Origin: Rhodospirillaceae bacterium
GTDB taxonomy: Bacteria; Pseudomonadota; Alphaproteobacteria; Reyranellales; JAQSWP01
Assembly: GCA_040255215.1 (NCBI GenBank)
Contig: JBDZUM010000003.1
Coordinates: 8,673-72,672 of the forward strand
Length of the DNA stretch: 64,000 bases
Direction: 5' to 3'
In this document: in pieces, positions 2,876 through 46,246 of the stretch
Position numbering within the stretch: the stretch's first letter is position 1
Layout: each line of letters opens with the position of its first letter
Program-made: the position numbers and the translations under genes
Notes under the pieces: generated by a model
Told to the model about the DNA's origin: nothing
The model's input: only the letters and a program-made list of their open reading frames with translations
The model's database searches: none

Positions 2876-3704
2876 ATGGCAAAGGAGATTCCTCAAGAAC
2901 CCGGCGAACCGTCGCGCGCCGATTGGCGCGATCCCACGAACTACAAATCCCTGCTGACTCTTGACCGTTCCGGCTGGGCTTGGAATTGGCTCCGCCGAAA
3001 TCCCGACTACATTGCCCGAACGAGTCAACTTCTTGCGCGTAGGCGGCTCGAACAGCCCGGCACGCGATTGCGCGTCATCACCACATCGGATGCCGAGGAG
3101 GCGCGCGATTGGGGTTTGCACTTTCGCGGAGGCGCCGATCCGCCCGGCAACCGATGCCTGCATCTTCTGGCGAGCCGATTGGGATACATCGGTGCTGGCT
3201 GCCGAGACGCTGCCAGTGCGGCACGGCGATGGCGATGCCTTCGACATCCGCCGTTTCGACAGCGTGGCGACCGTACTACGGTGCCCTGACGGCCACGAGC
3301 ATCTGCTCCTCAGTGATGGGGTACATCACCTCCAGATGGAAGTGACGGCGGGCAGCCTGCTCGATGGCCCCGTTCGCTTCCGCTACGAGCTGTCCGGCTT
3401 CAAGCATATCGAGGCGAAGACGCTGACGCTGCGCCGCCTGATGCTGCTCCACCGCCTTGGACGCTTCCCGAGCGGGCTCTATCCCCCGGAACGCCGCGCC
3501 CGCCGCTGGGCGATGGCGCTTCGGGCCCATGACGCGGTGGGGGCCGGTGCCAGTCATCGCGAAATCGCCGCGGCGCTCTTCGGCGAGAAGGTCGTCAAGG
3601 AAGATTGGTGCGGCCGGTCAGACTATCTGCGCCTTCGGGTACAACGGCTCCTCCGAATGGCGGACAAGCTGGTGAACGGCGGCTATCGCGATCTCTTGCG
3701 ATGA
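2876..3704 (+). CDS. FseA-like ICE transfer activator (N-terminal WxWLRRNP domain plus C-terminal DUF2285), requires a +1 frameshift near 3122-3126
   Basis: Frame of 2771 gives MAKEIPQ...ADWRDPTNYKSLLTLDRSGWAWNWLRRNPDYIA...EARDWGLHF, with a GGAGG Shine-Dalgarno sequence before ATG 2876. Frame of 2961 continues AEAPIRPATDACIFWRADWD...GGYRDLLR. The junction is at CAC-TTT-C-GCG. Confidence 0.7.
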
Positions 3705-3744
3705 GCCGGAACGCGGAAGGAGTAGCGGCCTTTGCGGCCGTACG

Positions 3745-3825
3745 AGTGAGAGGGCGGCTGGGGATTCCGTGACGGGTTGAGGAGGCGAGAGAGAGGCTCT
3801 TGCCGGCCCGTCTCGGAGATCCGCG
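3745..3825 (+). repeat. Class-1 conserved structured leader, copy A (upstream of ardC)
   Basis: gagagggcggctggggattccGTGACGGGttgaggaggcGAGAGAGAGgctcttgccggCCCGTCtcGGAGAtccgcgATG. Outer stem GACGGG (3771-3776) / CCCGTC (3807-3812). Confidence 0.6.
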
Positions 3826-4788
3826 ATGTCACGTTCAACCGCTTGCGCTCGCTCCGGTCGGGACCGGGCGAGCCTCTATCAGGAAATCACCGACAAGTTT
3901 ATCGCCGAGCTGGAGGCAGGCCGCGTGCCCTGGGTCCAGCCCTGGGGCACGACGGCGGCGAAGGCATCGCTCGCCATGCCGAAGAATGCTGCGACCAGCC
4001 ATTGCTACTCCGGGATCAATGTGCTGATCCTGTGGCGTGCAGTCGTAGAGCGCGGCTTTTCGGGCCAGCGCTGGCTCACGTTTCGCCAGGCGCTTGGGCT
4101 CGGCGGCCATGTCCGTAAGGGCGAGACCGGCACGACTGTCGTCTATGCCGACCGCTTCGTTCCCGACGAGGAGCGCCGGCGGGCCGAACGCGACGGGGAC
4201 GAGCCGGGGGCCATCCCTTTCCTGAAGCGCTTCACGGTCTTCAACACCGACCAATGCGAGGGCCTGCCGCGGGAGCTCTCGACCTCGCCGCCGCCCGTGG
4301 CAGAGGGCATGATCCTGCCGCAGGCCGAGGCCCTGATCGCGGCCACGGGCGCGGATTTCCGCATCGGCGGCGACCGAGCCTTCTACAGCCCATCGCACGA
4401 TTTCGTCCAAGTGCCTCGGCCCGACGCCTACTTCGAGCCGATCAACTGGCACCGCACGGCGCTGCACGAGCTCGGCCATTGGAGCGGCCATCCCTCCCGG
4501 CTCGGCCGTGACCTGTCGGGCGGGTTCGGTTCCGTGCCCTATGCCAAAGAAGAGCTCTGTGCGGAGATGACCAGTGCCTTCGTCTGCGCCACGCTCGGCA
4601 TCGTGCCGACCGTGCGGCACGCCGACTACCTCGGATCCTGGCTCGAGGTGCTGCGCGAGGATGACCGCGCCATCGTTCGTGCCGCGAGCGCCGCGTCAAA
4701 AGCCGCGGACTATCTGCTCACCTTCCAGTCGCATCCCGACGAGCCCGTCGATATGGCGGCCGACGAAGACGAGCAGGAGGCGGCGTGA
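3826..4788 (+). CDS. ardC: ArdC-like antirestriction protein (ssDNA-binding N-domain plus zincin metallopeptidase)
   Basis: N-terminal YQEITDKFIAELEAGRVPWVQPW and C-terminal HEXXH motif TALHELGHWSGH. Confidence 0.85.
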   Translation: MSRSTACARSGRDRASLYQEITDKFIAELEAGRVPWVQPWGTTAAKASLAMPKNAATSHCYSGINVLILWRAVVERGFSGQRWLTFRQALGLGGHVRKGETGTTVVYADRFVPDEERRRAERDGDEPGAIPFLKRFTVFNTDQCEGLPRELSTSPPPVAEGMILPQAEALIAATGADFRIGGDRAFYSPSHDFVQVPRPDAYFEPINWHRTALHELGHWSGHPSRLGRDLSGGFGSVPYAKEELCAEMTSAFVCATLGIVPTVRHADYLGSWLEVLREDDRAIVRAASAASKAADYLLTFQSHPDEPVDMAADEDEQEAA

Positions 4789-4825
4789 TGCGTTTGCACA
4801 GCGATCACCGCAAGTCGGTATGCGG

Positions 4826-5791
4826 TTATGCTGCTTGCCGCGCGTGTTCGCAGCGGTGAATTTCGACCGTGACGTGGGAGAGCTGCGGCAGCTCGCGGAG
4901 CCTCGCTTTGTAGTGGCCGGGTTCTTGGGGGCGATCAGATATGACCGATACGATCACCGCCATATGGCCGGGGCCGATCCGCCACAGATGCAGATCTGAA
5001 ACCCGATCCCCATCATGTTCGAGTGTATGGCGGATCTGCTCCGACAGAGCGGTGTCCGGCATCGTGTCGAGCAGAACCGCCCCCGCGTCCCGAAGCAGTC
5101 CCCATGACCAACGGGCAATAACGACGCCTCCCACAATCCCCATGAGCGGGTCCATCCAGAGCCAGCCGTAAAACCGCCCGCCGAGCAGTCCAGCGATCGC
5201 CAGAACAGAGGTCAGCGCATCGGTGAGGACATGGAAATAGGCGGAACGCAGATTATGATCCTGATGGCCATGCGCATGCGCGTGTGGGTGACCGTCCTGC
5301 CGACCATGGTCATGGTGCTGATGATCGTGGTGACCGCCGTCGTGGAGCAGCCACGCGCTCACCAGATTGACGATCAGTCCCAAAACAGCCACGGCAATGG
5401 CCTCATTGAAGCGAATAGGGATAGGCGCGGTGAGGCGGAGCACGGACTCGAACCCGATCAACAGGGCGATAACTGCCAAGATGACGGCGCTTGAATATCC
5501 GGCCAGCTCTCCGAGCTTGCCGGTTCCGAATGTGAAGCGCTCGTCGTGAGCGTTGCGGCGTGCGTAGAGATAGGCGACAGCCGCAATCGTAAGCGCCCCG
5601 GCATGGGTCGCCATGTGAAAACCGTCGGCCAGCAGCGCCATCGACCCGAACATGGCTCCGGCGATGATCTCTCCGAACATCATCACAGCCGTCAGGCCGA
5701 TGACGATCCAGGTCCGCCGCTCGTTGCGGGCATGATCCGCACCAAGGAAAACATGATCGTGTTGCCAGGACTCGACGGAATCGGAGTGCAT
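4826..5791 (-). CDS. dmeF: Cation diffusion facilitator, DmeF-type Co(II)/Ni(II) efflux transporter
   Basis: N-terminal SWQHDHVFLG, six TM segments, and a His-rich loop HDGGHHDHQHHDHGRQDGHPHAHAHGHQDH. Confidence 0.85.
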   Translation of the reverse strand: MHSDSVESWQHDHVFLGADHARNERRTWIVIGLTAVMMFGEIIAGAMFGSMALLADGFHMATHAGALTIAAVAYLYARRNAHDERFTFGTGKLGELAGYSSAVILAVIALLIGFESVLRLTAPIPIRFNEAIAVAVLGLIVNLVSAWLLHDGGHHDHQHHDHGRQDGHPHAHAHGHQDHNLRSAYFHVLTDALTSVLAIAGLLGGRFYGWLWMDPLMGIVGGVVIARWSWGLLRDAGAVLLDTMPDTALSEQIRHTLEHDGDRVSDLHLWRIGPGHMAVIVSVISDRPQEPGHYKARLRELPQLSHVTVEIHRCEHARQAA

Positions 5792-5805
5792 TTGAAGCCT
5801 TCGCT

Positions 5806-6072
5806 TTAGAGGTATTTCGTAATCTCGCGGAACTCCGCGATCTTCTGTTGAACTTCAGGCGGTAGCGGGCCCGTAACCTCCCCCAAGTGGTGGTCGATGT
5901 GATCGATGATCAGCATCTGCTTAGCCTTCTCTAGTGCCTTGATCACGGCCTGCATCTGTTGGGCGATCACCATTCCGTCCCGTCCCTCGACGACCATACG
6001 GACGACAGTTGAGAGATGGCCTTCGGCGCGGCGAAGACGCCTGAGAATATCCGGATTGTCTGCATGGCTCAT
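5806..6072 (-). CDS. dmeR: CsoR/RcnR-family metal-sensing repressor (DmeR-like)
   Basis: 88 aa, LRRLRRAEGHLSTVVRMVVEGRD...IIDHIDHHL. Lies immediately upstream of the CDF gene. Confidence 0.85.
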   Translation of the reverse strand: MSHADNPDILRRLRRAEGHLSTVVRMVVEGRDGMVIAQQMQAVIKALEKAKQMLIIDHIDHHLGEVTGPLPPEVQQKIAEFREITKYL

Positions 6073-6083
6073 AGTTGTTATCC

Positions 6084-6102
6084 TATCCCCCTGGAGGGGA
6101 TA
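6084..6102. promoter_or_regulatory. Candidate DmeR operator (G/C-tract palindrome)
   Basis: TATCCCC-ctgga-GGGGATA, 12 nt upstream of the dmeR start. Matches the G/C-tract style of RcnR/CsoR operators. Confidence 0.6.
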
Positions 6103-6245
6103 CGGTCAAGTATGATAAACTTCGGTAGCGTCTCAGTTTGGCTCTCGCTTTTGGTAAGAGACGCGGCTTATCGCAGGCGGGGCGTTGCTCGGCTCCGATC
6201 TATTGGGGCATTCATTCGCTTCCCCACTTCGCATTAAGGATGCCT

Positions 6246-6626
6246 ATGGCAGATCGTCTGAAGAACTGGGCGCGTATCATTAAGCGGGATGTACATGCGC
6301 TGTACCTCGCCAGCCGCGATCCTCGCGTGCCCTGGTATGCCAAAGCCTTGGCCCTTGTCGTGGTGGGCTACGCGCTCTCCCCGATCGATCTTATTCCCGA
6401 TTTCATTCCGGTTCTGGGCTACCTGGATGACGTGATCCTGCTTCCGCTTGGTATCCTTCTCGTCATTCGCCTGATCCCTCCGAAAATTCTGGCTGAACAC
6501 CGTGACTTGGCCGCAGCGGCTCAGGAGCGCCCGGTGAGCCGCAGAGCGGCTGTTGTGATTGTCTGCATCTGGGCAGCTTGTATTGGACTGTCGGGATGGT
6601 TCGTCTATCGCTATTTCGGGCGCTGA
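6246..6626 (+). CDS. DUF1232 (YkvA-like) membrane protein
   Basis: YAKALALVVVGYALSPIDLIPDFIPVLGYLDDVILLPL. AAGGA Shine-Dalgarno sequence 5 nt before ATG 6246. Confidence 0.75.
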   Translation: MADRLKNWARIIKRDVHALYLASRDPRVPWYAKALALVVVGYALSPIDLIPDFIPVLGYLDDVILLPLGILLVIRLIPPKILAEHRDLAAAAQERPVSRRAAVVIVCIWAACIGLSGWFVYRYFGR

Positions 6627-6664
6627 AATTCAAACGGACACACTGCCCGGACGCGTTGGCTCCA

Positions 6665-6747
6665 GAGGGAGAGGCGGGAGGGGGACTTTGTGACGGGTTT
6701 GGAGGTCGAGAGAGAGGCTCCCGGCCGGCCCGTCATGGAGAACCGAC
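6665..6747 (+). repeat. Class-1 conserved structured leader, copy B (upstream of parB-like gene)
   Basis: gagaggcgggagggggactttGTGACGGGtttggaggtcGAGAGAGAGgctcccggccggCCCGTCatGGAGAaccgacATG. Near-identical to copy A. Confidence 0.6.
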
Positions 6748-8829
6748 ATGGCAACCGCCAATCCCAAGATCGTCCTGAGCCGGTCCCAGGACATTCCCTT
6801 CAACAAGCTGGTGCTGTCCCAGGCGAACGTCCGCCGGGTGAAGGCCGGCATCTCGGTCGAGGACCTGGCCGAGGATATCGCCCGGCGCACGCTCCTGCAG
6901 AGCTTGAGCGTGCGGCCGGTACTGAACGCTGAGGGCGTCGCGACCGGCATGTACGAGGTTCCGGCCGGCGGCCGGCGCTTCCGTGCGCTCGAACTGCTCG
7001 TGAAGCAGAAGCGCATGGCCAAGACCCAGCCCGTGCCGTGCGTCGTGCGCGAAGGCGGGACGCCCGAGGAGGACAGCCTGGCCGAGAACGTCCAGCGCGT
7101 CGCGCTCCATCCGCTCGACCAGTTCCGGGCCTTCCAGACCCTTCGCGACTCCGGCCTGGGTGAGGACGAGATCGCCGCCCGTTTCTTCGTCAGCCCCAGC
7201 GTCGTGAAGCAGCGCCTGAAGCTCGCATCGGTCTCGCCGAAGCTCCTCGACATCTATGCCGGCGACGAGATGACGCTCGAGCAGCTCATGGCCTTCACCG
7301 TCACCAATGACCATGACCGGCAGGAGCAGGTGTGGGAGCAGCTTGCCCGCTCCTACAACAAGGAGCCCTATTACATCCGCCGCCAACTTACCGAAGGCGC
7401 CATCCGTGCCTCCGACAAGCGGGCGCAATTCGTTGGCATCGAGGTCTACGAGGCGGCCGGTGGCGCCGTCATGCGCGATCTCTTCCAGCAGGACGATGGC
7501 GGCTGGCTGCAGGATCCGGCACTGCTCGACCGGCTCGTCGTCGAGAAGCTGACCAAAGAGGCGGAGGCGCTCCGCGGCGAGGGCTGGAAATGGATCGAGG
7601 TCGCGGCGGAGTTTCCCTACGGCCATACCGCCGGTCTCCGCCGCCTTGCCGGGGAGACGGCATCGCCTACCGACGAGGAGCAGGCGACCCACGACGCGCT
7701 GCGCGCCGAGTACAACAAGCTGGAGGAGACCTACGCGGAGGTCGAAGAACTCCCCGACGAGGTCGACCAGCGTCTCGGCGAGATCGAGACAGCGCTGGAG
7801 GCGTTCGACGATCGCCCTGTGATCTACGATCCCGCCGACATTGCCCGTGCCGGCGCCTTCGTCAGCATTGATGGCGACGGCGATCTGCGCATCGAGCGCG
7901 GCTATGTCCGTCCCGAGGATGAAGCGCCGGCCGAGCCGGACGCCGATGGCGACGCGCCCGAAGGTTCCGAGGACGACGGCGATGTCCAGCGCACGGTGGT
8001 CACCATCGGCGGCAACGGATCGTCGGCGAGTGCCGAGACCGCCGAGGAGGAAGATGGCATCAAGCCGCTGCCCGACCGTCTGGTCACCGAGCTCACCGCT
8101 CATCGCACGCTGGCGCTGCGCGACGCGCTGGCGAACGATCCCGACACCGCCTTCGTCGCGGTTCTTCATGCGCTCTGTCTCAACGCCTTCTATCGCTATG
8201 CGTCTGAGACCTGCCTGGAGATCGCGGCGAAGAGCGCGAGCTTCGGCACGCAGGCGCCGGGGCTCAACGACAGTGCGTCGGCCAAGGCGATCGAGGGCCG
8301 GCACGCGCAATGGGCCGGACAATTGCCGAAGGACGCCAGTGACCTCTGGAACGCGCTCATCGCCTTCGACGGCGACAGCCGCGCATCGCTGTTCGCGCAC
8401 TGCGCGTCGCTTTCGGTCAACGCGGTCCATGAGCCGTGGAACCGCAACCCGCGCCGCATCGTCCATGCGGGACGGGTCGCCCGAGCCGTCGGTCTCGACA
8501 TGGTCGCGGCCGGTTGGACGCCGACCGTCGACAACTATCTCGGCCGCGTCACCAAGGCACGCATCCTCGAAGCCGTGCGCGAGGCCAAGGGCGAAGCCTC
8601 GGCCCAGCTCATCGACCACCTCAAGAAGCCGGACATGGCGAAGGAGGCCGAGCGCCTGCTCGCCGGATCGGGGTGGCTGCCCGAGCCGCTTCGCCTGCCG
8701 GACGCCGAGACGGCTGTCGACGAACCGGCCACGACCGAGAATCTACCGGCGTTCCTCGATGACGACGAAGGCGCCTCCGTGGACTCCGATCCGAAAGAGC
8801 CGCAGCCGCCCGCCATCGCGGCAGAATGA
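6748..8829 (+). CDS. ParB/Srx N-terminal-domain protein (large ICE ParB-like protein)
   Basis: ParB box YEVPAGGRRFRALELL. 693 aa with an acidic central linker. Position after ardC is typical of this ICE backbone. Confidence 0.85.
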   Translation: MATANPKIVLSRSQDIPFNKLVLSQANVRRVKAGISVEDLAEDIARRTLLQSLSVRPVLNAEGVATGMYEVPAGGRRFRALELLVKQKRMAKTQPVPCVVREGGTPEEDSLAENVQRVALHPLDQFRAFQTLRDSGLGEDEIAARFFVSPSVVKQRLKLASVSPKLLDIYAGDEMTLEQLMAFTVTNDHDRQEQVWEQLARSYNKEPYYIRRQLTEGAIRASDKRAQFVGIEVYEAAGGAVMRDLFQQDDGGWLQDPALLDRLVVEKLTKEAEALRGEGWKWIEVAAEFPYGHTAGLRRLAGETASPTDEEQATHDALRAEYNKLEETYAEVEELPDEVDQRLGEIETALEAFDDRPVIYDPADIARAGAFVSIDGDGDLRIERGYVRPEDEAPAEPDADGDAPEGSEDDGDVQRTVVTIGGNGSSASAETAEEEDGIKPLPDRLVTELTAHRTLALRDALANDPDTAFVAVLHALCLNAFYRYASETCLEIAAKSASFGTQAPGLNDSASAKAIEGRHAQWAGQLPKDASDLWNALIAFDGDSRASLFAHCASLSVNAVHEPWNRNPRRIVHAGRVARAVGLDMVAAGWTPTVDNYLGRVTKARILEAVREAKGEASAQLIDHLKKPDMAKEAERLLAGSGWLPEPLRLPDAETAVDEPATTENLPAFLDDDEGASVDSDPKEPQPPAIAAE

Positions 8830-8877
8830 CCTCGACCAGCGGGGCGGCGCTTGTCGCCCCGTACCCTCTCACACAGA

Positions 8878-8913
8878 GCCCGGCCTCCTGAGCTTGTCGC
8901 AGGGGCGCCGGGC
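8878..8913 (+). repeat. Class-2 intercistronic hairpin, copy F
   Basis: GCCCGGC (8878-8884) / GCCGGGC (8907-8913), followed by tTTCGCAtTTCAGGAGAC and ATG 8937. Confidence 0.55.
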
Positions 8914-8936
8914 TTTCGCATTTCAGGAGACTTTCG

Positions 8937-9473
8937 ATGGACTGGTACACCTCCTGCTCCTACGAGCCCGATCGAAAGCGTCGCTTCCATACCGTCGCCC
9001 GGGCGCGGCTTCGTTGCCTCGCCGCGGAACTCGGCTTTTCGCCCGCATCGTTCGATCTGCGCTCGAACCAGGGCGGGATCGCCGTGTCCGGCGAGATCAC
9101 GCTCCATCATGAGCGCGTCTATGTGCAGGTCTGCCAGCCGGCGACCCGTGCCGACACCGGCATCCTCATCCGCAGTTGCGAAGGCCGGCGCGACTATACG
9201 GGCGGATGCAACAACTTCGCGCCGCTGCGGCTCCTTGATGACATTCCGGCGCTCGCCGAGCGGGTCCGCGCGGTGATCGCGGCCAACGGCGGCCGCGCCC
9301 ACGCAGCATGTGAGGGGGAGGACAATCGGGACGGGCGAGCCGGGTCGGGCCGAGAGAGAGCCCGCCGGCCGTCCCGCAACCCGCATCAGGAGGTCAATCA
9401 TGACCGACACCACATCGGCCCCCACTGTCAATCCGGACTGGGAATCCTGGCAGGCTCAGGCGGGAGAACGTGA
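8937..9473 (+). CDS. Conserved ICE-backbone hypothetical protein
   Basis: Good codon bias and a Shine-Dalgarno sequence AGGAGA. The 3' end runs through class-1 copy C and overlaps the next gene by 74 nt, so the true stop or extent is uncertain. Confidence 0.5.
   Translation: MDWYTSCSYEPDRKRRFHTVARARLRCLAAELGFSPASFDLRSNQGGIAVSGEITLHHERVYVQVCQPATRADTGILIRSCEGRRDYTGGCNNFAPLRLLDDIPALAERVRAVIAANGGRAHAACEGEDNRDGRAGSGRERARRPSRNPHQEVNHDRHHIGPHCQSGLGILAGSGGRT
9311..9399 (+). repeat. Class-1 conserved structured leader, copy C
   Basis: tgaggggGAggacaatcGGGACGGgcgagccgggtcgggccGAGAGAGAGcccgccggCCGTCCCgcaacccgcatcAGGAGGtcaatcATG. Outer stem 9328-9334 / 9369-9375. Confidence 0.55.
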
Positions 9474-9876
9474 CCGGCTCGCCAAGGAGGTGCTTCCCGC
9501 CAACAAGGCCGCCCTCTTCGACGTGCTCGCCGCTGCCGGCATCGTCACTGTCACCGTCCGCTTCGACGGCTATGGCGATTCCGGCCAGATCGAGGATATC
9601 GAGGCCTGCGCGACCGATACCATCGTCGAACTTCCTCCCGACCGGATCGAGATCACCGAGCCGCTTTACGACGGCTCGGGACTGGAGCGATCCACCCCGT
9701 CGGTCCGCGACGTGATCGAGAAGTTCGCCTACGACTTCCTTGAGGAAACCCATGGCGGCTGGGAGAACAACGAAGGCGCCTATGGCGATTTCACCTTCGA
9801 CGTCGAGAGCCGGACCATCACGCTCGAATACAACGAGCGGATGATGACGTCCGAATACTCCCAGCACGCATTCTGA
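9400..9876 (+). CDS. Conserved ICE-backbone hypothetical protein (possibly a DUF6878-type family; unverified)
   Basis: MTDTTSAPTVNPDWESWQAQAGERDRLAKEVLPANKAALFDVL...VRFDGYGDSGQIEDIEA. Strong AGGAGG Shine-Dalgarno sequence. Confidence 0.65.
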   Translation: MTDTTSAPTVNPDWESWQAQAGERDRLAKEVLPANKAALFDVLAAAGIVTVTVRFDGYGDSGQIEDIEACATDTIVELPPDRIEITEPLYDGSGLERSTPSVRDVIEKFAYDFLEETHGGWENNEGAYGDFTFDVESRTITLEYNERMMTSEYSQHAF

Positions 9877-9886
9877 GGAGGCGACG

Positions 9887-10249
9887 ATGGGACATTGCTA
9901 TCATCACGCCCTCTCCTCGGTGAACAAATGGGGCGGCACGGCGGACGACTATCTGCCGCTCCATCAATGGTTCGACGAGTCGAAGGCGATCACGGCCGAT
10001 TTTCGTCACCGGGCGCTGCGCCACCACGCAGAAGGCATCTTCATGCTGGAGCGCTTCTTCGGACCGACGATCACGATCTCCTCGGGCCGCGTCGTGCCGG
10101 TCCGCCTGATCGGCGAGCAGCATGTGCGCGAGGATCTCGGTTTCATCCCGAGCTTCGCCGACTGGGTCCGCTGCATTCGGCCAGAACCCTGGATGGGCCG
10201 CGCCCAGCCGATCCACCGCGACGTCGATCCCTTCGCGGCTACCGCCTGA
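9887..10249 (+). CDS. Conserved ICE-backbone hypothetical protein
   Basis: MGHCYHHALSSVNKWGGTADDYLPLHQWFDESK... Coding-like composition, 10 nt after the previous stop. Confidence 0.6.
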   Translation: MGHCYHHALSSVNKWGGTADDYLPLHQWFDESKAITADFRHRALRHHAEGIFMLERFFGPTITISSGRVVPVRLIGEQHVREDLGFIPSFADWVRCIRPEPWMGRAQPIHRDVDPFAATA

Positions 10250-10274
10250 CGTCCACCCCCTCATCATCCTCTTC

Positions 10275-10304
10275 GAAGAGCCCGGCCATCGCGCCGGGCT
10301 CTTC
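10275..10304 (+). repeat. Class-2 intercistronic hairpin, copy G
   Basis: Perfect 12-bp stem GAAGAGCCCGGC-catcgc-GCCGGGCTCTTC, then GCATCTCAGGAGACCTCTC-ATG (10324). Confidence 0.6.
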
Positions 10305-10323
10305 GCATCTCAGGAGACCTCTC

Positions 10324-11088
10324 ATGGCCGACTATCATTCACCGACCGTGGTGCAGCCGACGATTCCCGATCGCGACATGACGCCGCTCGAACGCCTGCT
10401 GCTCTCGCACATCCTCGATTGCGAGCCGGACGGCGACGGGTTCTATTTCTACAGCGAAACCGGCCCGAGCGACGGCATCGAGCTGCCGCTCGACGAACTC
10501 CGCACGGCGCTCGCGGCATCCGACGGCGTTCCGAGTACCGCCCATGACTACGTCATCGAGCGGCTGGGCCCCGCCGGCCCGGACGATACGCATTTCGAGA
10601 TCGACCTTAGCGGAACGTCGTGGGAGTTCATCCTCCAGGACATCGTCCGCCGGTCGCGGACCCTCGATCACATCACCGTCGTCTCGGCGTTCACCTGCAC
10701 CAAGATGCGCCCCGACGGTTTCGGAGGGATGGCGGTGCTGATCAGCGCCGACGCCATCAAGGGCAAATCTACCCACGATATCCTGGAAGACTTTCTCGCC
10801 GAAGGCGCCGAAGACGATCCGATGCGCTCTGTCGCTTGCGGCGCAAGATCGCATGTGCTGTTGGCGCTCGATGAACCGTCGGTAAAGCAAGAGGTCCGAG
10901 TGGTCATCGAAAGCGATCCCGCGTTCGCGGCCTTGGCACCGGAGGCGGTGACGGACGCCGATATCCGCTCAGCCTGTATCGCGGTCGCCGAACATGCCGA
11001 CCTGGCGGAGGAACAGGGCGCCGCCCGCTTCCGCGCCGCCCTCCGCGCCATTCGCGAGGCCGAGCGGCGATGCGCGCAGATCAACTGA
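10324..11088 (+). CDS. Conserved ICE-backbone hypothetical protein
   Basis: MADYHSPTVVQPTIPDRDMTPLERLLLSHILDCEPDGDGFYFYSETGP... Start chosen at the ATG following the hairpin and Shine-Dalgarno sequence. The upstream part of ORF 9895 is overlap noise. Confidence 0.6.
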   Translation: MADYHSPTVVQPTIPDRDMTPLERLLLSHILDCEPDGDGFYFYSETGPSDGIELPLDELRTALAASDGVPSTAHDYVIERLGPAGPDDTHFEIDLSGTSWEFILQDIVRRSRTLDHITVVSAFTCTKMRPDGFGGMAVLISADAIKGKSTHDILEDFLAEGAEDDPMRSVACGARSHVLLALDEPSVKQEVRVVIESDPAFAALAPEAVTDADIRSACIAVAEHADLAEEQGAARFRAALRAIREAERRCAQIN

Positions 11089-11114
11089 CTCTCCCACATC
11101 CGATCTCGCACAGA

Positions 11115-11138
11115 GAGCCCGGCCATCGCGCCGGGCCT
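11115..11138 (+). repeat. Class-2 intercistronic hairpin, copy H
   Basis: GCCCGGC-catcgc-GCCGGGC (11117-11136), then cTTCGCcgtTCAGGAGgCttgca-ATG (11160). Confidence 0.55.
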
Positions 11139-11159
11139 TCGCCGTTCAGGAGGCTTGCA

Positions 11160-11405
11160 ATGAGTATCCCCGACCACGCCCGCACCAACTTCCAGACCCT
11201 TCTACGCGCCGCGGCGGCCGGCGACCTGGCCCTTGTCGAATGCGCCGACGCGGCCACCGGCGATCCGCGCTACGTCATCTGCGCGGTTGGTCGCGACAAC
11301 GGCGATTACGTGCTGACGCCCTTCGGCCATCTGGCGCCGGCTAGCCCTTACGACGCCTACATCCCGCCAACCGATGATGCGGCGCCGCTCCCCGGGTCCG
11401 GTTGA
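11160..11405 (+). CDS. Small conserved ICE-backbone hypothetical protein
   Basis: MSIPDHARTNFQTLLRAAAAGDLALVECADAATGDPRYVICAVGRDNGDYVLTPFGHL. Confidence 0.55.
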   Translation: MSIPDHARTNFQTLLRAAAAGDLALVECADAATGDPRYVICAVGRDNGDYVLTPFGHLAPASPYDAYIPPTDDAAPLPGSG

Positions 11406-11410
11406 AAGGA

Positions 11411-11501
11411 AGAGGGGGCCGGGACGGGGTTGAGCCGGCCGGGCTCCAGAGAGAGAGCGGCCTGCCGGTCTCGCCCCTCCCGCTCTCCTGGACCTCCGCC
11501 C
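11411..11501 (+). repeat. Class-1 conserved structured leader, copy D (degenerate)
   Basis: agaGGGGGccGGGACGGGgttgagccggccgggctccAGAGAGAGAGcggcctgccggtctcGCCCCtcccgctctcctggacctccgcccATG. Confidence 0.45.
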
Positions 11502-14500
11502 ATGCACCCGACCACCGTATCCGCGGCCGTTACCACGGCCGCGCCTCGTACCCGCGCTATCACCGAGCCGGACACGGCGACCTGCCTGATCCGCGCCGCC
11601 AATCTCCTTCTCCCGGATATTGAACACGGCCACGCCGTCGATTCACGGCAGTTGCGCACCGCCATGGAACATGCTTTCGGCGGCGCCGACGCCGAAGGCG
11701 CCTGGGCGTGGAAACATGCCTATGACGCCTGCGAGGCCGCGCAGGTGCTCTTCCTGCGCAAGTTCGGCCCGGCCATCCGGGCGCGCGCCGCGACACCGGC
11801 TGCCCAGCTCGCCATGCTCGGCAAGGTCGCCGCTCTTCTGCCGTCGCAGACGCGCCGTTCCGAGGAGAGCCAGGCACTTCAGCAGTTCTCGACGCCGATC
11901 ACCCTCGGCTTCGCCGCCAGCATCGCCGGCGCGATCGACCCTGCCGATCTCGTGCTGGAGCCTTCGGCCGGGACGGGCCTGCTCGCGATCTTCGCCGAGC
12001 TGGCCGGGACATCGCTCGTCCTCAACGAGCTGGGCGAGACCCGTGCGGGGCTGCTCGCTTCTCTCTTTCCCGGCGCGGCCGTCTGCCGCCATGACGCGGC
12101 GCATATTCACGATCATCTCGACGCCGAAGTCCGGCCGAGCGTCGTGCTGATGAACCCGCCGTTCTCGGTGGCAGCGCATGTGGACGGCAAGGTTGCCGAC
12201 GCCGCCCTGCGCCATATCGCCTCCGCGTTGGCGCGCCTCGCCGAAGGCGGCCGCCTGGTCGCGATCACCGGCGCCAACCTCTCCTCCGACAATCCCGCCT
12301 GGCGCGATAGCTTCGTGCGGCTCCAGGAGCGGGGCCGTGTCGTGTTCTCGGCTGCGATCGACGGCCGCGTCTATGCCCGTCACGGCACCAGCGTCGAGAC
12401 ACGCCTGACGGTCATCGACCGCGTCCCCGCCGATGATCCGACGGCGTTCCCACCTTCGCTGGGCACCGCACCTGACGCCGCCACGCTTCTCGACTGGGTA
12501 ATCCGTCACGTCGTGCCGCGTGCCGCCACGGCGGCTTCCCCGGCGATACAGGCCGCGACGCCCGGAGGGCGCCTGGCATCCGCGCGTTCGGCGCCGCGCG
12601 TGGCTCCACCCCAGAACATCGGACCCGTCCCGGAAGACGCCGTCGACGTCGCCTATGAGCCTTGCGACTGGGCGCCTGCCGACGACGGACGTATCAGCGA
12701 GGCACTCTATGAGGGCTATACCCTCCAGTCGATCCGCATCCCGAATGCCAAGCCGCATCCGACGCGGCTGGTGCAATCGGCGGCCATGGCGTCGGTGGCG
12801 CCGCCCAAGCCGAGCTACCGCCCGCATCTGCCGGCGGCCGTTATCGCCGATGGCCTGCTGTCGGACGCCCAGCTCGAGAGCGTCATCTATGCCGGCGAGG
12901 CCCATGCCGGCTTCCTCGCCGGGTCGTGGACCGTCGACGAGACCTTTGACATCGTCGCGGCGGCGCCCGACGACGCCGAGGCGGCCGTCCGCTTCCGCCG
13001 CGGCTGGATGCTCGGTGACGGCACCGGCGCCGGCAAGGGCCGCCAGGTCGCGGGCGTGCTGCTCGACAACTGGCTGCAAGGTCGCTGTCGCGCGGTCTGG
13101 GTGTCGAAGTCGGACAAGCTGATCGAGGACGCCCAACGCGACTGGTCGGCGCTGGGGCAGGAGCGGCTGCTGATCACGCCGCTCGCCCGCTTCCGCCAGG
13201 GCACGCCGATCCGCCTGGAGCAGGGCATCCTCTTCACCACCTATGCGACGCTGCGCTCGGATGCGCGGGAGGCGAAGGCCTCGCGCGTTCAGCAGATCGT
13301 CGATTGGTTGGGCCGCGACTTCGATGGCGTCATCGTCTTCGACGAGAGCCACGCCATGCAGAATGCCGCGGGTGGGAAGGGCGAGCGTGGCGATCAGGCG
13401 CCCTCCCAGCAAGGCCGTGCTGGCCTCCGCCTGCAGCATGCGTTACCCAACGCCCGCGTCCTTTATGTGTCGGCGACCGGCGCCACCACGGTCCACAACC
13501 TCGCTTATGCGCAGCGGCTCGGCCTGTGGGGCGGCGAGGACTTCCCGTTCGCCACCCGCGCCGAGTTCGTCCAGGCGATCGAGGCCGGCGGCGTCGCGGC
13601 AATGGAAGTCCTGGCCCGCGACCTGAAGGCGCTCGGCCTCTATGCGGCTCGCTCTCTTTCCTACGAAGGCGTCGAATACGAGCTGGTCGAGCACGCGCTC
13701 AGCCCGGAGCAGATCCGCATCTACGACGCCTATGCCGGCGCCTTCCAGATCATCCACAACAATCTGACCGCGGCGCTGGAGGCCGCGAACGTCACGGGCG
13801 AGGGCGGCACCCTGAACGCCCAGGCGAAGTCGGCTGCGCGCTCCGCGTTCGAAAGCTCGAAGCAACGCTTCTTCAACCACCTCATCACGGCGATGAAGAC
13901 GCCGACGCTGATCGCCGCCGTCCATCGCGACCTCGACGCGGGCCACGCCGCTGTCATCCAGATCGTCTCGACCGGCGAGGCGCTGATGGAGCGGCGTCTG
14001 GCCGAGGTTCCGACCGAGGAATGGGGCGACGTGCAAGTCGACATCACGCCCCGCGAATATGTCCTCGACTATCTGGCGCATTCCTTCCCGACGCAGCTCT
14101 ACGAGCCCTTCACCGACAGCGAGGGCAATCTTTCCTCTCGCCCGGTGTTCCGCGACGGCCAGCCGGTGCAATGCCGCGACGCCATCGAACGGCGCCACCG
14201 CCTGATCGAGAAGCTCGCCGCGCTGCCGCCGGTGCAAGGCGCGCTCGACCAGATCGTCCAGCGCTTCGGCACCGACATGGTCGCCGAGGTCACCGGCCGC
14301 TCGCGGCGCATCGTGCGTGTCAGAGGTAATGACGGGAGTGATCGTCTGCGCGTCGAGAGCCGGGCCGGTTCGGCCAACCTTGCCGAGACGCAAGCCTTCA
14401 TGGACGACGAGAAGCGCATCCTCGTGTTCAGCGACGCCGGCGGCACCGGCCGCAGCTACCATGCCGATCTCGGCGCAAGGAACCGCCGCCTGCGCGTCCA

Positions 14501-15854
14501 CTACCTGCTCGAAGCTGGCTGGAAGGCGGATACTGCGATCCAGGGCCTCGGGCGCTCCAACCGCACCAACCAGGCGCAGCCGCCGCTGTTCCGGCCGATC
14601 GCCACCGACGTGAAGGCGGAAAAGCGCTTCCTCTCGACGATCGCGCGCCGCCTCGACACCCTGGGCGCCATCACCAAGGGCCAGCGCCAGACCGGCGGGC
14701 AGGGGCTGTTCCGCGCTGACGACAACCTCGAATCCGTCTATGGCCGCGCCGCGCTGCGCCAGCTCTACGTCCTGCTCTATTCCGGCAAGGTCGACGGCTG
14801 TTCACTGCAGGCGTTCGAGGACGCCACCGGCCTCAAGCTGACGGACGGCGACGGCAGTCTGCGCGAGGAGCTGCCGCCGATCACCACCTTTCTCAACCGC
14901 CTGCTGGCGCTCACCATCGACCTCCAGAACGTCTTGTTCAGCGTGTTCGAGGAATTGCTGCGCGCGAAGATCGAGGGCGCCGTCGCCTCCGGCACTTACG
15001 ATCTCGGCGTCGAGACGGTCACGGCGGAATCGCTGCGCATCACCGACCGCCGCACCATCTACGTCCATCCGGGCAGCGGCGCCGAGACGCAGGTCTTCAC
15101 CGTGGCCCGCCGCGATCGCAACCGGCCGTTCAGCCTCGCCGAGGCCCTGGACCGCGCTGGCGATCCCCGCGCAACCCTCCTGGTCAACGGCCAGTCGGGC
15201 CGCGCCGCCGTCCAGGTCCCCGCACCCAGCCTGATGCTCGATGACGGCGAGGTCGAGCGCCGCGTCCGTCTCCTGCGGCCGATGGAGCGCCCCGCCATCC
15301 CCTTGGCCGCGATGGCGCAGACCCATTGGCGCGAAGCCGACCGCGACGCGTTCGCCGCCGCCTGGGAGGCCGAGATCGCCGATCTGGCCGAGTTCACCGA
15401 CAGCCGGATCCATATCGTCACCGGTCTGCTGCTGCCGATCTGGAAGCGCCTTCCCGACGAAGGCTGTCGCGTCTACCGGCTTCAGACCGACGAGGGCGAG
15501 CGGGTGATCGGCCGTCTCGTCTCGCCGGCCTGGGTCGCGCAGGCGGTCGCGACCGACAAACCGACGATCAGCCCCACCGACGCGTGGACTGCCGTGCTCG
15601 ACGGCCGGACCGTGCTGGAGCTCGCCGACGGCCTCCAGCTTCGGCGCGCCAAGGTCATGGGCGCGTTCCGCGTCGAGCTCTCCGGCTTCACCGACGGCAT
15701 GGTCGACCGGCTGAAGGCGATGGGGCTCACCTCAGAGATCATTGCCTGGAAGCTCCGGCTGTTCGTCCCCACCGGCGCGACCGGCCCCGCAATCCTCGGC
15801 ACGCTGATGGAGCGCCATCCGCTCATGCGCGTCGCCGACCGCGGCGCGGCGTGA
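11502..15854 (+). CDS. Strawberry-notch family protein: N-terminal amino-methyltransferase fused to a DExH helicase-like core
   Basis: MTase motif I VLEPSAGTGLLA and motif IV VLMNPPFS. P-loop GDGTGAGKGRQ. DExH motif VIVFDESH. About 1450 aa. Start set at ATG 11502, after class-1 copy D. Confidence 0.85.
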   Translation: MHPTTVSAAVTTAAPRTRAITEPDTATCLIRAANLLLPDIEHGHAVDSRQLRTAMEHAFGGADAEGAWAWKHAYDACEAAQVLFLRKFGPAIRARAATPAAQLAMLGKVAALLPSQTRRSEESQALQQFSTPITLGFAASIAGAIDPADLVLEPSAGTGLLAIFAELAGTSLVLNELGETRAGLLASLFPGAAVCRHDAAHIHDHLDAEVRPSVVLMNPPFSVAAHVDGKVADAALRHIASALARLAEGGRLVAITGANLSSDNPAWRDSFVRLQERGRVVFSAAIDGRVYARHGTSVETRLTVIDRVPADDPTAFPPSLGTAPDAATLLDWVIRHVVPRAATAASPAIQAATPGGRLASARSAPRVAPPQNIGPVPEDAVDVAYEPCDWAPADDGRISEALYEGYTLQSIRIPNAKPHPTRLVQSAAMASVAPPKPSYRPHLPAAVIADGLLSDAQLESVIYAGEAHAGFLAGSWTVDETFDIVAAAPDDAEAAVRFRRGWMLGDGTGAGKGRQVAGVLLDNWLQGRCRAVWVSKSDKLIEDAQRDWSALGQERLLITPLARFRQGTPIRLEQGILFTTYATLRSDAREAKASRVQQIVDWLGRDFDGVIVFDESHAMQNAAGGKGERGDQAPSQQGRAGLRLQHALPNARVLYVSATGATTVHNLAYAQRLGLWGGEDFPFATRAEFVQAIEAGGVAAMEVLARDLKALGLYAARSLSYEGVEYELVEHALSPEQIRIYDAYAGAFQIIHNNLTAALEAANVTGEGGTLNAQAKSAARSAFESSKQRFFNHLITAMKTPTLIAAVHRDLDAGHAAVIQIVSTGEALMERRLAEVPTEEWGDVQVDITPREYVLDYLAHSFPTQLYEPFTDSEGNLSSRPVFRDGQPVQCRDAIERRHRLIEKLAALPPVQGALDQIVQRFGTDMVAEVTGRSRRIVRVRGNDGSDRLRVESRAGSANLAETQAFMDDEKRILVFSDAGGTGRSYHADLGARNRRLRVHYLLEAGWKADTAIQGLGRSNRTNQAQPPLFRPIATDVKAEKRFLSTIARRLDTLGAITKGQRQTGGQGLFRADDNLESVYGRAALRQLYVLLYSGKVDGCSLQAFEDATGLKLTDGDGSLREELPPITTFLNRLLALTIDLQNVLFSVFEELLRAKIEGAVASGTYDLGVETVTAESLRITDRRTIYVHPGSGAETQVFTVARRDRNRPFSLAEALDRAGDPRATLLVNGQSGRAAVQVPAPSLMLDDGEVERRVRLLRPMERPAIPLAAMAQTHWREADRDAFAAAWEAEIADLAEFTDSRIHIVTGLLLPIWKRLPDEGCRVYRLQTDEGERVIGRLVSPAWVAQAVATDKPTISPTDAWTAVLDGRTVLELADGLQLRRAKVMGAFRVELSGFTDGMVDRLKAMGLTSEIIAWKLRLFVPTGATGPAILGTLMERHPLMRVADRGAA

Positions 15855-15866
15855 GGGGAGGCGATC

Positions 15867-16919
15867 ATGTCCAGCACCATGTCCAGCCAAGCCACCGAGC
15901 TGGCGCGGCGTCTCGCGCGCGATGCCGAAGTCGTCTGCCGCCACTATCTTCCCAACGGTCGCCGCCACGGCCGCTACTGGCTGGTGGGCGATGTTCGGAA
16001 CACCCCCGGCCGCAGCCTCTATGTCCGTCTCACGGGACCGGACTCCGGCCCCGGCGCCGCCGGCAAATGGACCGACGCCGCCACCGGCGAGCACGGCGAT
16101 CTCCTCGACCTGATCGCCCTCAACCGCGGGCTCGACGCCTTCCGCGACGTGCTCGACGACGCGCGCCGCTTCCTCTGCCTGCCGCGTTCCGAGCCTGCGC
16201 ATCCGACCCGCGAACCGCCGCTGCCGGCCGGATCGCCCGAGGCGGCCCGCCGTCTGTTTCGCGCTGGCCGGCCCGTCGCCGGCACCCAGGCCGAAGCCTA
16301 TTTCCGCGCGCGCGGCATCACAGCACGGCTCGATTGGCCATCGCTGCGCTTCCATCCGGCGCTCTGGTACCGGTCGGACCGCGATGCTGCCCGCGAATCC
16401 TGGCCGGGGCTGCTCGCCGCCGTGACCGACGCGGACGGCCGGATCACCGGCGTCCATCGCACCTGGCTCGACCGGCAGCGTCCCGAGAAGGCCCCGCTCG
16501 CCGATCCGCGCCGTGCGCTCGGCCAACTGCTGGGCAACGGCGTGCGCTTCGGCCGCGTGGCCGACGTGCTCGCCGCCGGCGAGGGCATCGAGACCATGCT
16601 CGCCCTCAAATCGGTGCTGCCCGACCTGCCGATGATCGCCGCGCTCTCGGCCAACCATCTCGCCGCCCTCGATCTCGTCCCGATGCTCGCCCGGCTCTAT
16701 GTCGCACTGGACCGCGATGCCGCCGGCCGAATGGCGGCGGAACGGCTGCATGCGCGCGGATGCGACGCCGGCATCGAGATCCGCGACCTTATGCCGGCCA
16801 GGAGCGATTTCAACGTCGATCTGCGGCGCCTCGGCCCGGATGCCATGCTCACCCGGCTGGCGGACCAGCTCGCTCCGGCCGATGCCCTGCGGTTCCTGCG
16901 CCGTCTCGACGCCGCCTGA
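15867..16919 (+). CDS. Toprim-domain protein (primase-like, ICE backbone)
   Basis: Toprim signatures AAGEGIETMLAL and YVALDRDAAG. Confidence 0.75.
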   Translation: MSSTMSSQATELARRLARDAEVVCRHYLPNGRRHGRYWLVGDVRNTPGRSLYVRLTGPDSGPGAAGKWTDAATGEHGDLLDLIALNRGLDAFRDVLDDARRFLCLPRSEPAHPTREPPLPAGSPEAARRLFRAGRPVAGTQAEAYFRARGITARLDWPSLRFHPALWYRSDRDAARESWPGLLAAVTDADGRITGVHRTWLDRQRPEKAPLADPRRALGQLLGNGVRFGRVADVLAAGEGIETMLALKSVLPDLPMIAALSANHLAALDLVPMLARLYVALDRDAAGRMAAERLHARGCDAGIEIRDLMPARSDFNVDLRRLGPDAMLTRLADQLAPADALRFLRRLDAA

Positions 16920-25936: not shown

Positions 25937-26291
25937 CCACACCGATCGCTTCGGGAGCGGCGTCGCCACGGCGTCGCTCCCATCATGTTAGCGGACGACT
26001 CCGCCTGGTCCATGGGCATCGCCTTGAGCCGAGACCAGGCAAGAGATCGTAGGTAAGCGCGGGACGGACGGAGAGTAGATCGAAAGTCGCGTAAGGCAAG
26101 ATTAAAGGGGTGTCTCGCATGAGCCACTATCTCTTTGTCTGCACATCGTTATTCAGAGAGATTCTGATTGCGGGCTTCGAGACTCCCTCGCGTAAGCCCT
26201 TGATTCTCCGCATGGCGATGGAGACGCCTTGCGGCCCGCGCGCGGGCGCTGCTTCCTCATGTTGTCGGACACTTTCGACTGTCGCTGAGGC

Positions 26292-29874: not shown

Positions 29875-29890
29875 CGTCTCCTTCGGCACT

Positions 29891-46088: not shown

Positions 46089-46112
46089 GCTCTCTGTCCT
46101 GAGATCGGAGAA

Positions 46113-46226
46113 AGCCATATTGCATATATGGTTTGGATCAATTTTGACGTAGTACGTTGGTTCGATCGCCGCTTTACCATTGACGGGCGAAGCCATATCT
46201 AATATATGGTTATGATCGAATTTGTC
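46113..46226 (+). promoter_or_regulatory. Two direct copies of an approximately 35-bp palindrome-containing box upstream of abiEi (candidate AbiEi operators/promoter)
   Basis: AGCCATATtgcATATATGGTTtgGATCaATTTTG (46113-46147) and AGCCATATctaATATATGGTTatGATCgAATTTG (46191-46226). Each contains CCATAT..ATATGG. AT-rich spacer. Confidence 0.6.
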
Positions 46227-46246
46227 AAAGTAAGTCCGAAACCGCC

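Follow-up and report, generated by a model that had tools for sequence, protein, structure and literature searches.

Control of leading-region and establishment genes is understood for a few enterobacterial plasmids only, by way of Frpo or of repression of the KorA/KorB or ArdK type. In Frpo, a long stem on the transferred (template) strand imitates a -35/-10 duplex (PMC11541004). Two orphan structured RNAs have also been tied to the DNA-handling genes of mobile elements. The radC RNA motif (RF01754) is presented as an orphan cis-regulatory candidate in the 5' untranslated regions (UTRs) of radC, integrase, DNA methyltransferase and anti-restriction genes (PMC2864571), and the STAXI RNA motif (RF01728) occurs in mobile elements, close to genes such as ssb and those for topoisomerase, antirestriction and integrase, its nature as RNA or single-stranded DNA (ssDNA) being debated (PMC2864571). 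Here we describe a further family, the AGAG leader, in a stretch of 64,000 nucleotides from a Rhodospirillaceae bacterium (contig JBDZUM010000003.1; this whole stretch is called the window below). The leader precedes ardC, a parB-like gene, a DUF6878 gene and the strawberry-notch (sno) helicase gene of an integrative and conjugative element (ICE), four places at which an original prediction, made from the sequence alone, had noticed a recurrent structured element.

The gene context of the AGAG leader, which stands before ArdC, RadC and Sno genes, is essentially the same as that of the radC RNA motif. The radC seeds, however, come from beta- and gammaproteobacteria and show a multi-hairpin fold with tetraloops and without AGAG boxes, unlike the AGAG leader in both sequence and fold; they look unrelated to it, and RF01754 was absent even at E <= 10 when slices of 141-161 nt were searched. 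As the context is shared whereas sequence, fold and model match are not, we regard the AGAG leader as an alphaproteobacterial analogue of the radC motif and not as a member of its family. STAXI, made of tandem pseudoknots with UUCG loops in Enterobacteriales, differs as well, the AGAG leader having no Rfam match. With the Frpo/ssi elements the leader has in common that it is structured, present in several copies per region and located upstream of anti-defence and establishment genes all facing one way. It differs from them in lying on the coding strand, in its richness in G-U pairs, in its length of about 22 bp, in the absence of promoter hexamers and in being locked to a Shine-Dalgarno sequence and an AUG.

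Structured RNA is known to act at or between genes in several other systems. In the fourU and ROSE RNA thermometers, the Shine-Dalgarno sequence is paired with a U-rich tract in a marginally stable hairpin. One subtype of the AGAG leader, type 1, and only this one, resembles them in having a U-rich tract that pairs with GGAG through U-A and U-G pairs at the hairpin base, whereas the genes concerned are not heat-shock or virulence genes, the Shine-Dalgarno sequence of the other subtype, type 2, is unsequestered and Rfam returned no match. An RNA thermometer was rejected, since the mean of -33.5 kcal/mol for the 66-nt core makes the type 1 hairpin far too stable to melt in the physiological range (30-42 C). 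The early mRNA of phage T7 carries RNase III sites between early genes, one of them upstream of the antirestriction gene 0.3 (ocr). Both these sites and the AGAG leader are intercistronic hairpins of comparable helix length, with an internal loop, between early genes; the T7 sites differ in lacking invariant purine boxes. Finally, translational operators (the MS2 coat-protein operator, the T4 RegA sites, ribosomal-protein operators) and ribosome standby or STAB-SD sites consist of structured RNA at the ribosome-binding site. The AGAG leader is like them in its conserved unpaired purines and in Shine-Dalgarno-like tracts upstream of the real one; the partner of the AGAG leader is postulated.

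Rfam 15 gave no match at the gathering thresholds across the whole window, and at E <= 10 the four copies of the window and their best type 1 and type 2 relatives gave only chance matches to long hairpins, such as microRNA precursors. Literature searches returned no description of the element, which the original prediction had likewise not recognised. The AGAG leader is apparently an undescribed, new family of orphan cis-regulatory leader RNAs of mobile elements. It adds a well-supported family to the orphan structured RNAs exemplified by radC and STAXI, in a setting (alphaproteobacterial ICEs and repABC plasmids, including symbiosis islands and rhizobial and agrobacterial plasmids) for which the Rfam and literature searches yielded nothing comparable.

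Four copies and two subtypes in the window

The sequence GAGAGAGAG occurs exactly four times in the 64 kb, always on the + strand and always within one of the copies A to D (Table 1), for an expected count of 0.93; four occurrences were reached in 3 of 100 shuffles. All four copies were found where the original prediction had placed them, and the 3' end of every one is the ribosome-binding site of its gene: ardC (ATG at 3826), the parB-like gene (6748), the DUF6878 gene (9400) and sno (11502). An end of the element 15-40 nt before the start codon, as first described, does not hold; in A and B the Shine-Dalgarno sequence lies within the outer stem.

Copies A to D form one family with two subtypes, type 1 (A and B) and type 2 (D, and C in degenerate form). 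Several details of the first description had to be revised accordingly. A and B, reported as nearly identical, are only about 77-80% identical. The conserved box, given as GAGGGGG, is in fact AGAGnnAGAGK (hereafter Box 1), good in B, with one change in A and degenerate in C and D. Copies C and D had been taken for versions of A and B with compensatory changes; they constitute a subtype of their own, with one extra helix and a 3' GCUCUCC that can pair with Box 1. The placement of GAGAGAGAG as a loop was correct for C and D, where the whole run is looped out, and incorrect for A and B, where its first half belongs to the inner stem, as the 5' strand, and the loop is AGAGG alone.

The RNA fold of copy A has an energy of -39.9 kcal/mol (z -2.5) and that of copy B -39.2 kcal/mol. 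Scores against the type 1 model (R1) were 91.9 bits for A and 96.1 bits for B, and against the type 2 model (R2) 42.6 bits for C (E 6.9e-8) and 70.8 bits for D (E 1.8e-15), each copy being itself a seed member of the model in question.

Copy C is a decayed type 2 leader, with a degenerate Box 1 and without the 3' GCUCUCC. Contrary to the first description, copy C is not strictly intergenic in the window, since it is overlapped by the open reading frame (ORF) 8937-9473. The stop codon of orf8937 is lost, TGT at 9309-9311 replacing the TGA found in a 94% identical relative (locus L003, 3335-3337), and the frame is extended through copy C to 9473, overlapping the start of the DUF6878 gene by 74 nt. 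The TGT is either a genuine loss of the stop codon or a sequencing error. The relative has a single type 2 leader, directly before sno; at this place, four additional genes and another type 2 copy are present in the window.

Table 1. Coordinates of the AGAG leaders, their parts and the adjoining genes in the window
Feature	Position	Strand	Basis or remark
DUF2285 FseA-like gene	2961-3704		
Copy A, type 1, before ardC	3743-3825	+	Sequence, RNA fold, model R1, alignment
Copy A, Box 1 (CGAGTGAGAGG)	3743-3753	+	
Copy A, P1	5' arm 3762-3776; 3' arm 3807-3822	+	3' arm with Shine-Dalgarno GGAGA 3815-3819
Copy A, internal loop	3777-3783	+	
Copy A, P2	3784-3791 : 3797-3804	+	
Copy A, loop AGAGG	3792-3796	+	
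ardC, ArdcN and zincin metallopeptidase domains	3826-4788	+	Pfam; gene behind copy A
Copy B, type 1, before parB-like gene	6664-6747	+	Sequence, RNA fold, R1, recurrence before parB
Copy B, Box 1 (AGAGGGAGAGG)	6664-6674	+	
Copy B, P1	5' arm 6685-6697; 3' arm 6729-6741	+	3' arm with Shine-Dalgarno GGAGA 6737-6741
Copy B, P2	6703-6711 : 6718-6726	+	
Copy B, GAGAGAGAG	6708-6716	+	
Gene of ParB-like 693-aa protein	6748-8829	+	Pfam; gene behind copy B
Copy C, degenerate type 2, before DUF6878 gene	9310-9399	+	Sequence, model R2
Copy C, Box 1 remnant (GTGAGGGGGAGG)	9310-9321	+	
Copy C, P1 (CGGGACGG : CCGTCCCG)	9327-9334 : 9369-9376	+	
Copy C, loop run GAGAGAGAG	9352-9360	+	
Copy C, Shine-Dalgarno AGGAGG	9388-9393	+	
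DUF6878 gene	9400-9876	+	Pfam; gene behind copy C
Copy D, type 2, before strawberry notch (ATG 11502)	11404-11501	+	Sequence, model R2, type 2 pairing statistics
Copy D, Box 1 (GAAAGGAAGAGG)	11404-11415	+	Overlaps DUF6117 stop TGA 11403-11405
Copy D, P1	5' arm 11417-11429; 3' arm 11472-11481	+	
Copy D, loop run	11449-11457	+	
Copy D, GCTCTCC	11482-11488	+	Complementary to Box 1
Strawberry-notch (Sno) helicase gene, AAA_34 and Helicase_C_4 domains	11502-15854	+	Pfam; gene behind copy D
Toprim gene	15867-16919		3' of sno

Distribution and associated genes

The ParB-like protein has more than 8000 homologues. From these, 80 loci were collected by ParB protein alignment alone (61-94% identity), with one genome per species and blind to the motif; they total 1.5 Mb and span five orders, Rhodospirillales, Hyphomicrobiales, Sphingomonadales, Rhodobacterales and Caulobacterales. 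A search with nhmmer returned 216 matches (162 of type 1 and 54 of type 2), all on the gene strand, and GAGAGAGAG was counted 86 times on the + (gene) strand and never on the - strand. A type 1 copy was present before parB in 79 of the 80 loci, the sole exception being a locus cut 15 nt before the gene. Where enough upstream sequence was available, a second type 1 copy was found upstream in 62 of 67 loci, and where enough downstream sequence was available, a type 2 copy was found downstream in 35 of 58. Presence in 79 of 80 loci chosen by ParB, together with the confinement of all copies to the gene strand, is far beyond chance. The analysis as a whole shows that the family exists, which strand it occupies, where it stands relative to the start codon and which genes it accompanies.

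Beyond the ParB loci, a blastn search of PLSDB (E <= 1e-3) found the leader in 183 plasmids, with Rhizobium (80), Mesorhizobium (28) and Agrobacterium (14) among the carriers; pRL7 of Rhizobium johnstonii 3841 is one of these plasmids. A metagenome scan with a strict pattern gave at least 120 matches. For practical use, a covariance model of the leader is a sensitive marker by which this establishment module can be traced in genomes as well as metagenomes. Among 'viral' contigs, the motif is present in one only, IMGVR_UViG_3300017645_000160 of IMG/VR, which carries two type 1 leaders (7186-7304 and 8557-8676) about 1.4 kb apart, as in ICEs, and is probably a conjugative element filed as a virus.

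At the ParB loci, type 1 precedes genes for ParB, ArdC, a DUF932-like protein of 400 aa and, rarely, others, and type 2 precedes those for Sno, an orf8937-like protein, DUF6878 and a RadC/JAB protein (the last in one copy, at locus L019). Among the metagenomic matches listed, the 122 instances selected by the motif alone stood before ParB in 82 cases, the DUF932-like protein in 10, ArdC in 9, a 182-aa family in 7 and Sno in 3. The genes preceded by the leader are of the types that populate plasmid leading regions. Their earlier characterisation as antirestriction and maintenance genes was borne out, the relatives adding the DUF932-like, RadC and orf8937-like genes to the set. The Sno homologue of pRL7 is annotated as a bifunctional class I SAM-dependent methyltransferase/DEAD/DEAH box helicase.

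Structure and covariation

Type 1 begins with Box 1 (AGAGnnAGAGK), whose positions A36, G37, A40 and G43 are invariant in all 142 distinct copies and whose conservation exceeds that of every stem. After a variable spacer of 12-14 nt come the outer stem P1 (YUUYCGUGACGGG / CCCGUCRYGGAGA), an asymmetric internal loop (UUGRRGG) and the inner stem P2 (GGYCGAGAG / CUCUCGGCC), which carries the pentaloop AGAGK; the first half of GAGAGAGAG is thus in the stem and the second half in the loop. The loop positions A91-G94 are conserved at 89-99% in the same copies, and the 3' flank reads GGAGAnnnnnnAUG. Type 2 shares with type 1 Box 1 and the GACGGG/CCCGU(U)C helix, to which it adds a helix GAGCCG / CGGYUC, the entire GAGAGAGAG in the terminal loop and the 3' GCUCUCC complementary to Box 1. 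The helices measure 13 + 9 bp in type 1 and 5 + 11 + 6 + 5 bp in type 2.

The structure is established by its pairing statistics. Standard pairs fill 93.6% of the type 1 pair cells, against 35-51% for slid controls, and double-change cells number 119, the shuffles giving 35.7 +/- 4.2 (0/500). All seven pairs of P2 (7/7) covary; at columns 87-101, for instance, AU is found 52 times, GC 34 times and CG 20 times, and the stem exists in the variants GAGAG:CUCUC, GGGAG:CUCCC, GGAGG:CCUCC, GAAAG:CUUUC and CAGAG:CUCUG. The type 2 structure was drawn by hand and afterwards tested for pairing. In a plain MAFFT alignment, not fitted to the structure, 79.7% of its cells are paired against 39-54% when slid; in the model-fitted alignment (A5), which leans towards the structure by construction, the values are 83% against 40-53%, with double changes at 18 pairs. 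RNAalifold returned no structure from the type 2 MAFFT alignment. The pairing of Box 1 with GCUCUCC is kept at 83% in type 2, and both partners are lost jointly in copy C. This covarying pairing points to a functional single-strand structure rather than to a coding constraint or a simple duplex operator, as the original prediction had argued.

Box 1 is mostly unpaired in the individual folds. Its complementarity to the 3' strand of P2 (CUCUC) is not above that of a shuffled control, so Box 1 behaves as a single-stranded site and not as the arm of a switch; a two-state switch, in which Box 1 and Box 2 would compete for the CUCUC strand, finds no support in this result.

A probable coding-strand RNA

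The helices contain 572 G-U pairs against 63 A-C mismatches. For the 66-nt core of type 1, the mean minimum free energy is -33.5 kcal/mol on the + strand against -21.8 kcal/mol on the - strand, and the + strand also folds better in 39 of 39 type 2 copies. Folded with DNA parameters, copy B reaches -11.6 kcal/mol (z -1.1), which is no better than shuffled sequence. The G-U excess and the stronger + fold are the pattern of an RNA made from the gene strand and the opposite of that of a template-strand hairpin. We conclude that the selected structure is on the sense strand and almost certainly one of RNA, and that the element is probably a functional sense-strand RNA. Identity with Frpo/ssi elements was rejected on the same evidence, the template-strand fold being weaker by 11.7 kcal/mol on average, in 142 of 142 type 1 copies, and the G-U pairs of the + strand becoming C-A mismatches.

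Relation to the ribosome-binding site and the transcript

The Shine-Dalgarno sequence of type 1 is part of P1: its GGAG pairs with the U-rich Y-U-Y tract at the P1 base, G117, G118, A119 and G120 being paired in 135, 136, 95 and 114 of the 142 copies, respectively. The pairing is often extended into the spacer in individual folds, and 7-8 nt separate the Shine-Dalgarno sequence from the AUG. In type 2 it lies directly 3' of the outermost helix, the end of which is at a median of 13 nt from the AUG. Because the type 2 Shine-Dalgarno sequence is unsequestered, simple occlusion cannot be the mechanism common to both subtypes. What they do have in common is a large, conserved, purine-studded structure exactly at the ribosome-binding site.

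Box 1, the loop box and the internal loop consist of purine tracts, as does the true Shine-Dalgarno sequence; in 90 of the 142 type 1 copies the internal loop resembles a Shine-Dalgarno sequence. In alphaproteobacterial 16S genes, the terminal CCUCC is followed by CCUUUCU, with which AGAGAGG could form seven pairs if the mature rRNA retains it. Such pairing with the 16S rRNA would fit a standby or decoy role.

Among 50 type 2 copies there are about 15, copy D included, in which Box 1 is overlapped by the stop codon of the gene upstream, so that the leader lies within a longer transcript at those copies. Translational coupling through this stop was rejected, since it concerns only these type 2 copies and none of type 1. 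Many type 2 copies (at loci L008, L010, L039, L058, L059 and others) are preceded, about 10-15 nt 5' of Box 1, by a hairpin of terminator type with a T run. In an intrinsic terminator or attenuator, such a site would coincide with the leader itself, which is the case at no copy. A search for an antisense partner found neither CUCUCUCUC nor the complement of Box 1 anywhere in the 64 kb. The first leader of a cluster often has no adjacent upstream ORF, and no constant gene, sought there as a possible regulator, was found upstream of it.

Proposed mechanism and alternative explanations

We infer from these data that the leaders are transcribed, that they act on translation initiation and that a partner exists. 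The reading that we prefer, with middling confidence, is that the AGAG leader is a cis-acting sense-RNA leader whose target is the adjacent ribosome-binding site and whose AGAG boxes are read by a common partner. In alphaproteobacterial ICEs and repABC/VirB plasmids, establishment and anti-defence genes would carry it in their mRNA as a 5' UTR or an intercistronic stretch, and it would fold into a long, near-coaxial hairpin with its 3' end on or directly beside the ribosome-binding site. The recognition surface would most likely be made of Box 1 (AGAGnnAGAGK), the loop AGAGK or GAGAGAGAG, and the conserved GACGGG/CCCGUC helix. The partner, a protein or the 30S subunit acting through the pyrimidine-rich 3' tail of its 16S rRNA, would on binding open, lock or mask the ribosome-binding site, and ardC, parB, DUF932, radC, sno and their neighbours would be switched jointly, at the post-transcriptional level. 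Among the three roles offered by the original prediction, that of a shared translational control leader fits best, whereas that of a single-strand promoter or primosome site is not supported, for the reasons given below.

Several observations weigh against this reading. The mean unpaired probability of the type 2 Shine-Dalgarno sequence is 0.49, so that it is not sequestered, and the predicted accessibility of the type 1 sequence (0.13-0.19) is not clearly below that of several leaderless genes (0.04-0.66), these values being derived from the partition function, which discriminates poorly in this GC-rich DNA. The core of P1 (GACGGG/CCCGUC) shows little variation, no pair having more than 5 double changes, and its conservation could reflect recognition of DNA as well as of RNA. 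Sequences within a subtype are related by descent, so the shuffle controls overstate significance, and the A5 alignment is fitted to the model. No promoter is recognisable near any copy and no pair of sigma-70-like -35/-10 hexamers was found; nor was any candidate RNA-binding protein or antisense RNA found in the element.

A tentative and rather doubtful extension is that the AGAG leader is the RNA half of a new post-transcriptional regulon, in which one partner, a protein of the element or of the host or the 30S subunit (through CCUUUCU), would read the invariant AGAG boxes of every leader, and which would produce a burst of establishment-gene expression when conjugative elements of Alphaproteobacteria enter a new cell. 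If true, such a regulon would be the translational counterpart of the zygotic induction driven by Frpo. As a single, compact and mutable unit, the leader gives a means of altering how ardC, parB, sno and their neighbours are expressed in coordination.

An unlikely alternative, though one compatible with the preferred reading, is that the leader is a module of RNA processing or stability, i.e. a site for RNase III or another endonuclease at which a long establishment transcript is cut into separate mRNAs. The cut would leave protective hairpins and a free ribosome-binding site, as at the T7 early sites. The intercistronic position and recurrence before successive genes of one co-oriented cluster speak for it, as do the fitting length of a coaxial hairpin of roughly 22-27 bp with an internal loop, the location inside a longer transcript that is indicated by the stop codons overlapping Box 1, and the terminator-like hairpins often present just 5' of the leader. 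RNase III, however, needs little primary sequence, whereas purine boxes that are nearly invariant and a P1 of conserved sequence require a partner that is sequence-specific.

It is improbable that the conserved part is a control region acting as duplex DNA, with the direct repeat AGAG-nn-AGAG of Box 1 as a promoter element or as the site of an activator or repressor (the DUF2285 FseA-like protein or ParB being possible binders) and with only the hairpin forming the 5' UTR. Box 1 is indeed conserved beyond any stem, and its location 12-14 nt before the hairpin would let the transcription start fall at the hairpin base; a promoter would have to be close, since parB retains its leader despite divergent cargo upstream, and the frequent lack of an adjacent ORF upstream of the first leader would suit one. 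Against this, no -35 partner and no flank conserved across the subtypes exist upstream of Box 1. Moreover, the conserved 3' GCUCUCC of type 2 is the complement of Box 1, copy C having lost the two together, and the overlapping stop codons mean that Box 1 is transcribed at least there. The published FseA/RdfS sites also differ: an inverted repeat at PrdfS is described, and no consensus is given for RdfS (PMC10359603, PMC11963761).

A metabolite or ion riboswitch, with Box 1, the UUGRRGG loop and the AGAG loop as the ligand pocket and the P1 base bearing the Shine-Dalgarno sequence as the expression platform, has little probability. In its favour, about 18 highly conserved unpaired nucleotides surround a covarying scaffold, the type 1 Shine-Dalgarno sequence is in the closing helix and the element is always in a 5' leader position; yet there is no multi-helix junction and no supported pseudoknot, the alternative pairing tested (Box 1 with the CUCUC strand) is not above chance, the Shine-Dalgarno sequence of type 2 is not sequestered and the genes handle DNA and are not metabolic.

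Less probable still is an ssDNA element of the transferred strand, working on entry into the recipient as a Frpo-like promoter or as a priming site for the Toprim protein of the element. The genes are of the leading-region type and run in one direction, towards the presumed origin of transfer (oriT) upstream of the relaxase gene; sno has a Toprim gene behind it, and several copies exist per element. The structure is nevertheless selected on the coding strand, which is unable to template these genes, as seen in the G-U and A-C counts; the hairpins are weak as DNA, lack hexamers of the -35/-10 kind and, with stems of about 22 bp, are too short for a Frpo-type promoter, and the fixed register with the Shine-Dalgarno sequence and the AUG is left unexplained. 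A priming site on the + strand keeps a low probability.

Finally, a selfish or neutral repeat of the REP or MITE type without a role in expression, which several copies per element and a palindromic character might suggest, is effectively refuted by the sense orientation of 216 of 216 copies at a fixed distance from the start codons of a defined gene set, by the covariation and by conservation across five alphaproteobacterial orders.

Mobile-element setting and neighbouring elements

From 2.9 to 18 kb, the window is occupied by the establishment region of an ICE, which is of the ICEMlSymR7A/Trb type. From 2.9 kb, the genes are ordered DUF2285 (FseA-like), ardC, a cargo insertion and the 693-aa ParB-like gene, followed by orf8937, DUF6878, DUF6915, orf10324, DUF6117, the strawberry-notch helicase, Toprim and YspA/DUF2493; farther downstream come traF, an SLT gene, a DUF3363 relaxase gene, traG and trbB-I. 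The cargo between ardC and the parB leader comprises dmeF, rcnR and DUF1232 (4826-6626), and metal-efflux cargo of the dmeF/rcnR type occupies the same place in an Indioceanicola plasmid (locus L001, 10524-11785). The leader stays joined to parB despite these independent insertions, and the site directly 5' of it may be an insertion hot spot.

Two other recurrent elements were noticed beside the leaders. One, also intercistronic, lies in the window at 8875-8936, 10277-10323 and 11114-11159 (+), before orf8937, orf10324 and DUF6117, and consists of a GC-rich hairpin AGAGCCCGGCC...GCCGGGCTCT followed by TCGCAT..TCAGGAG and ATG; in its strict form it occurs only in the window and in its closest relative (L003). 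The other, a conserved three-hairpin element of about 75 nt, lies outside the window, at L015 (8479-8552), at L008 (4790-4864) and at 17 more loci. It is composed of GGGGAAAGCCTTCCCC, GGCCGAG..CTCGGCC and TGCGGGGnnnCCCCGCA, then ACGCCCC, and its 19 occurrences are all on the gene strand, with 0 on the other; in 13 of them it adjoins Box 1 of the type 1 leader that comes first. As each of its hairpins is a perfect palindrome, as stable on one strand as on the other, it could act at the level of DNA or ssDNA; it has no Rfam match.

Upstream of the relaxase gene, an intergenic region richer in AT holds an imperfect inverted repeat, GGGAGCGGCGTCGCC-ACG-GCGTCGCTCCC (25955-25983), which is a candidate oriT; a nic consensus of the RP4 type was not found near it. 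Between the relaxase gene and traG (28954-31075, -), neighbouring genes encode a MazG C-terminal domain and a 5-hmdU DNA kinase helical domain. Such domains are known from phage pathways of thymidine hypermodification, and their presence inside the ICE hints at an element-borne DNA-modification function. Lastly, two AT-rich direct repeats of 46 nt (46112-46157 and 46190-46235), 76% identical to each other, lie downstream of trbI in GC-rich surroundings; each holds a CCATAT..ATATGG palindrome and has the appearance of an operator site.

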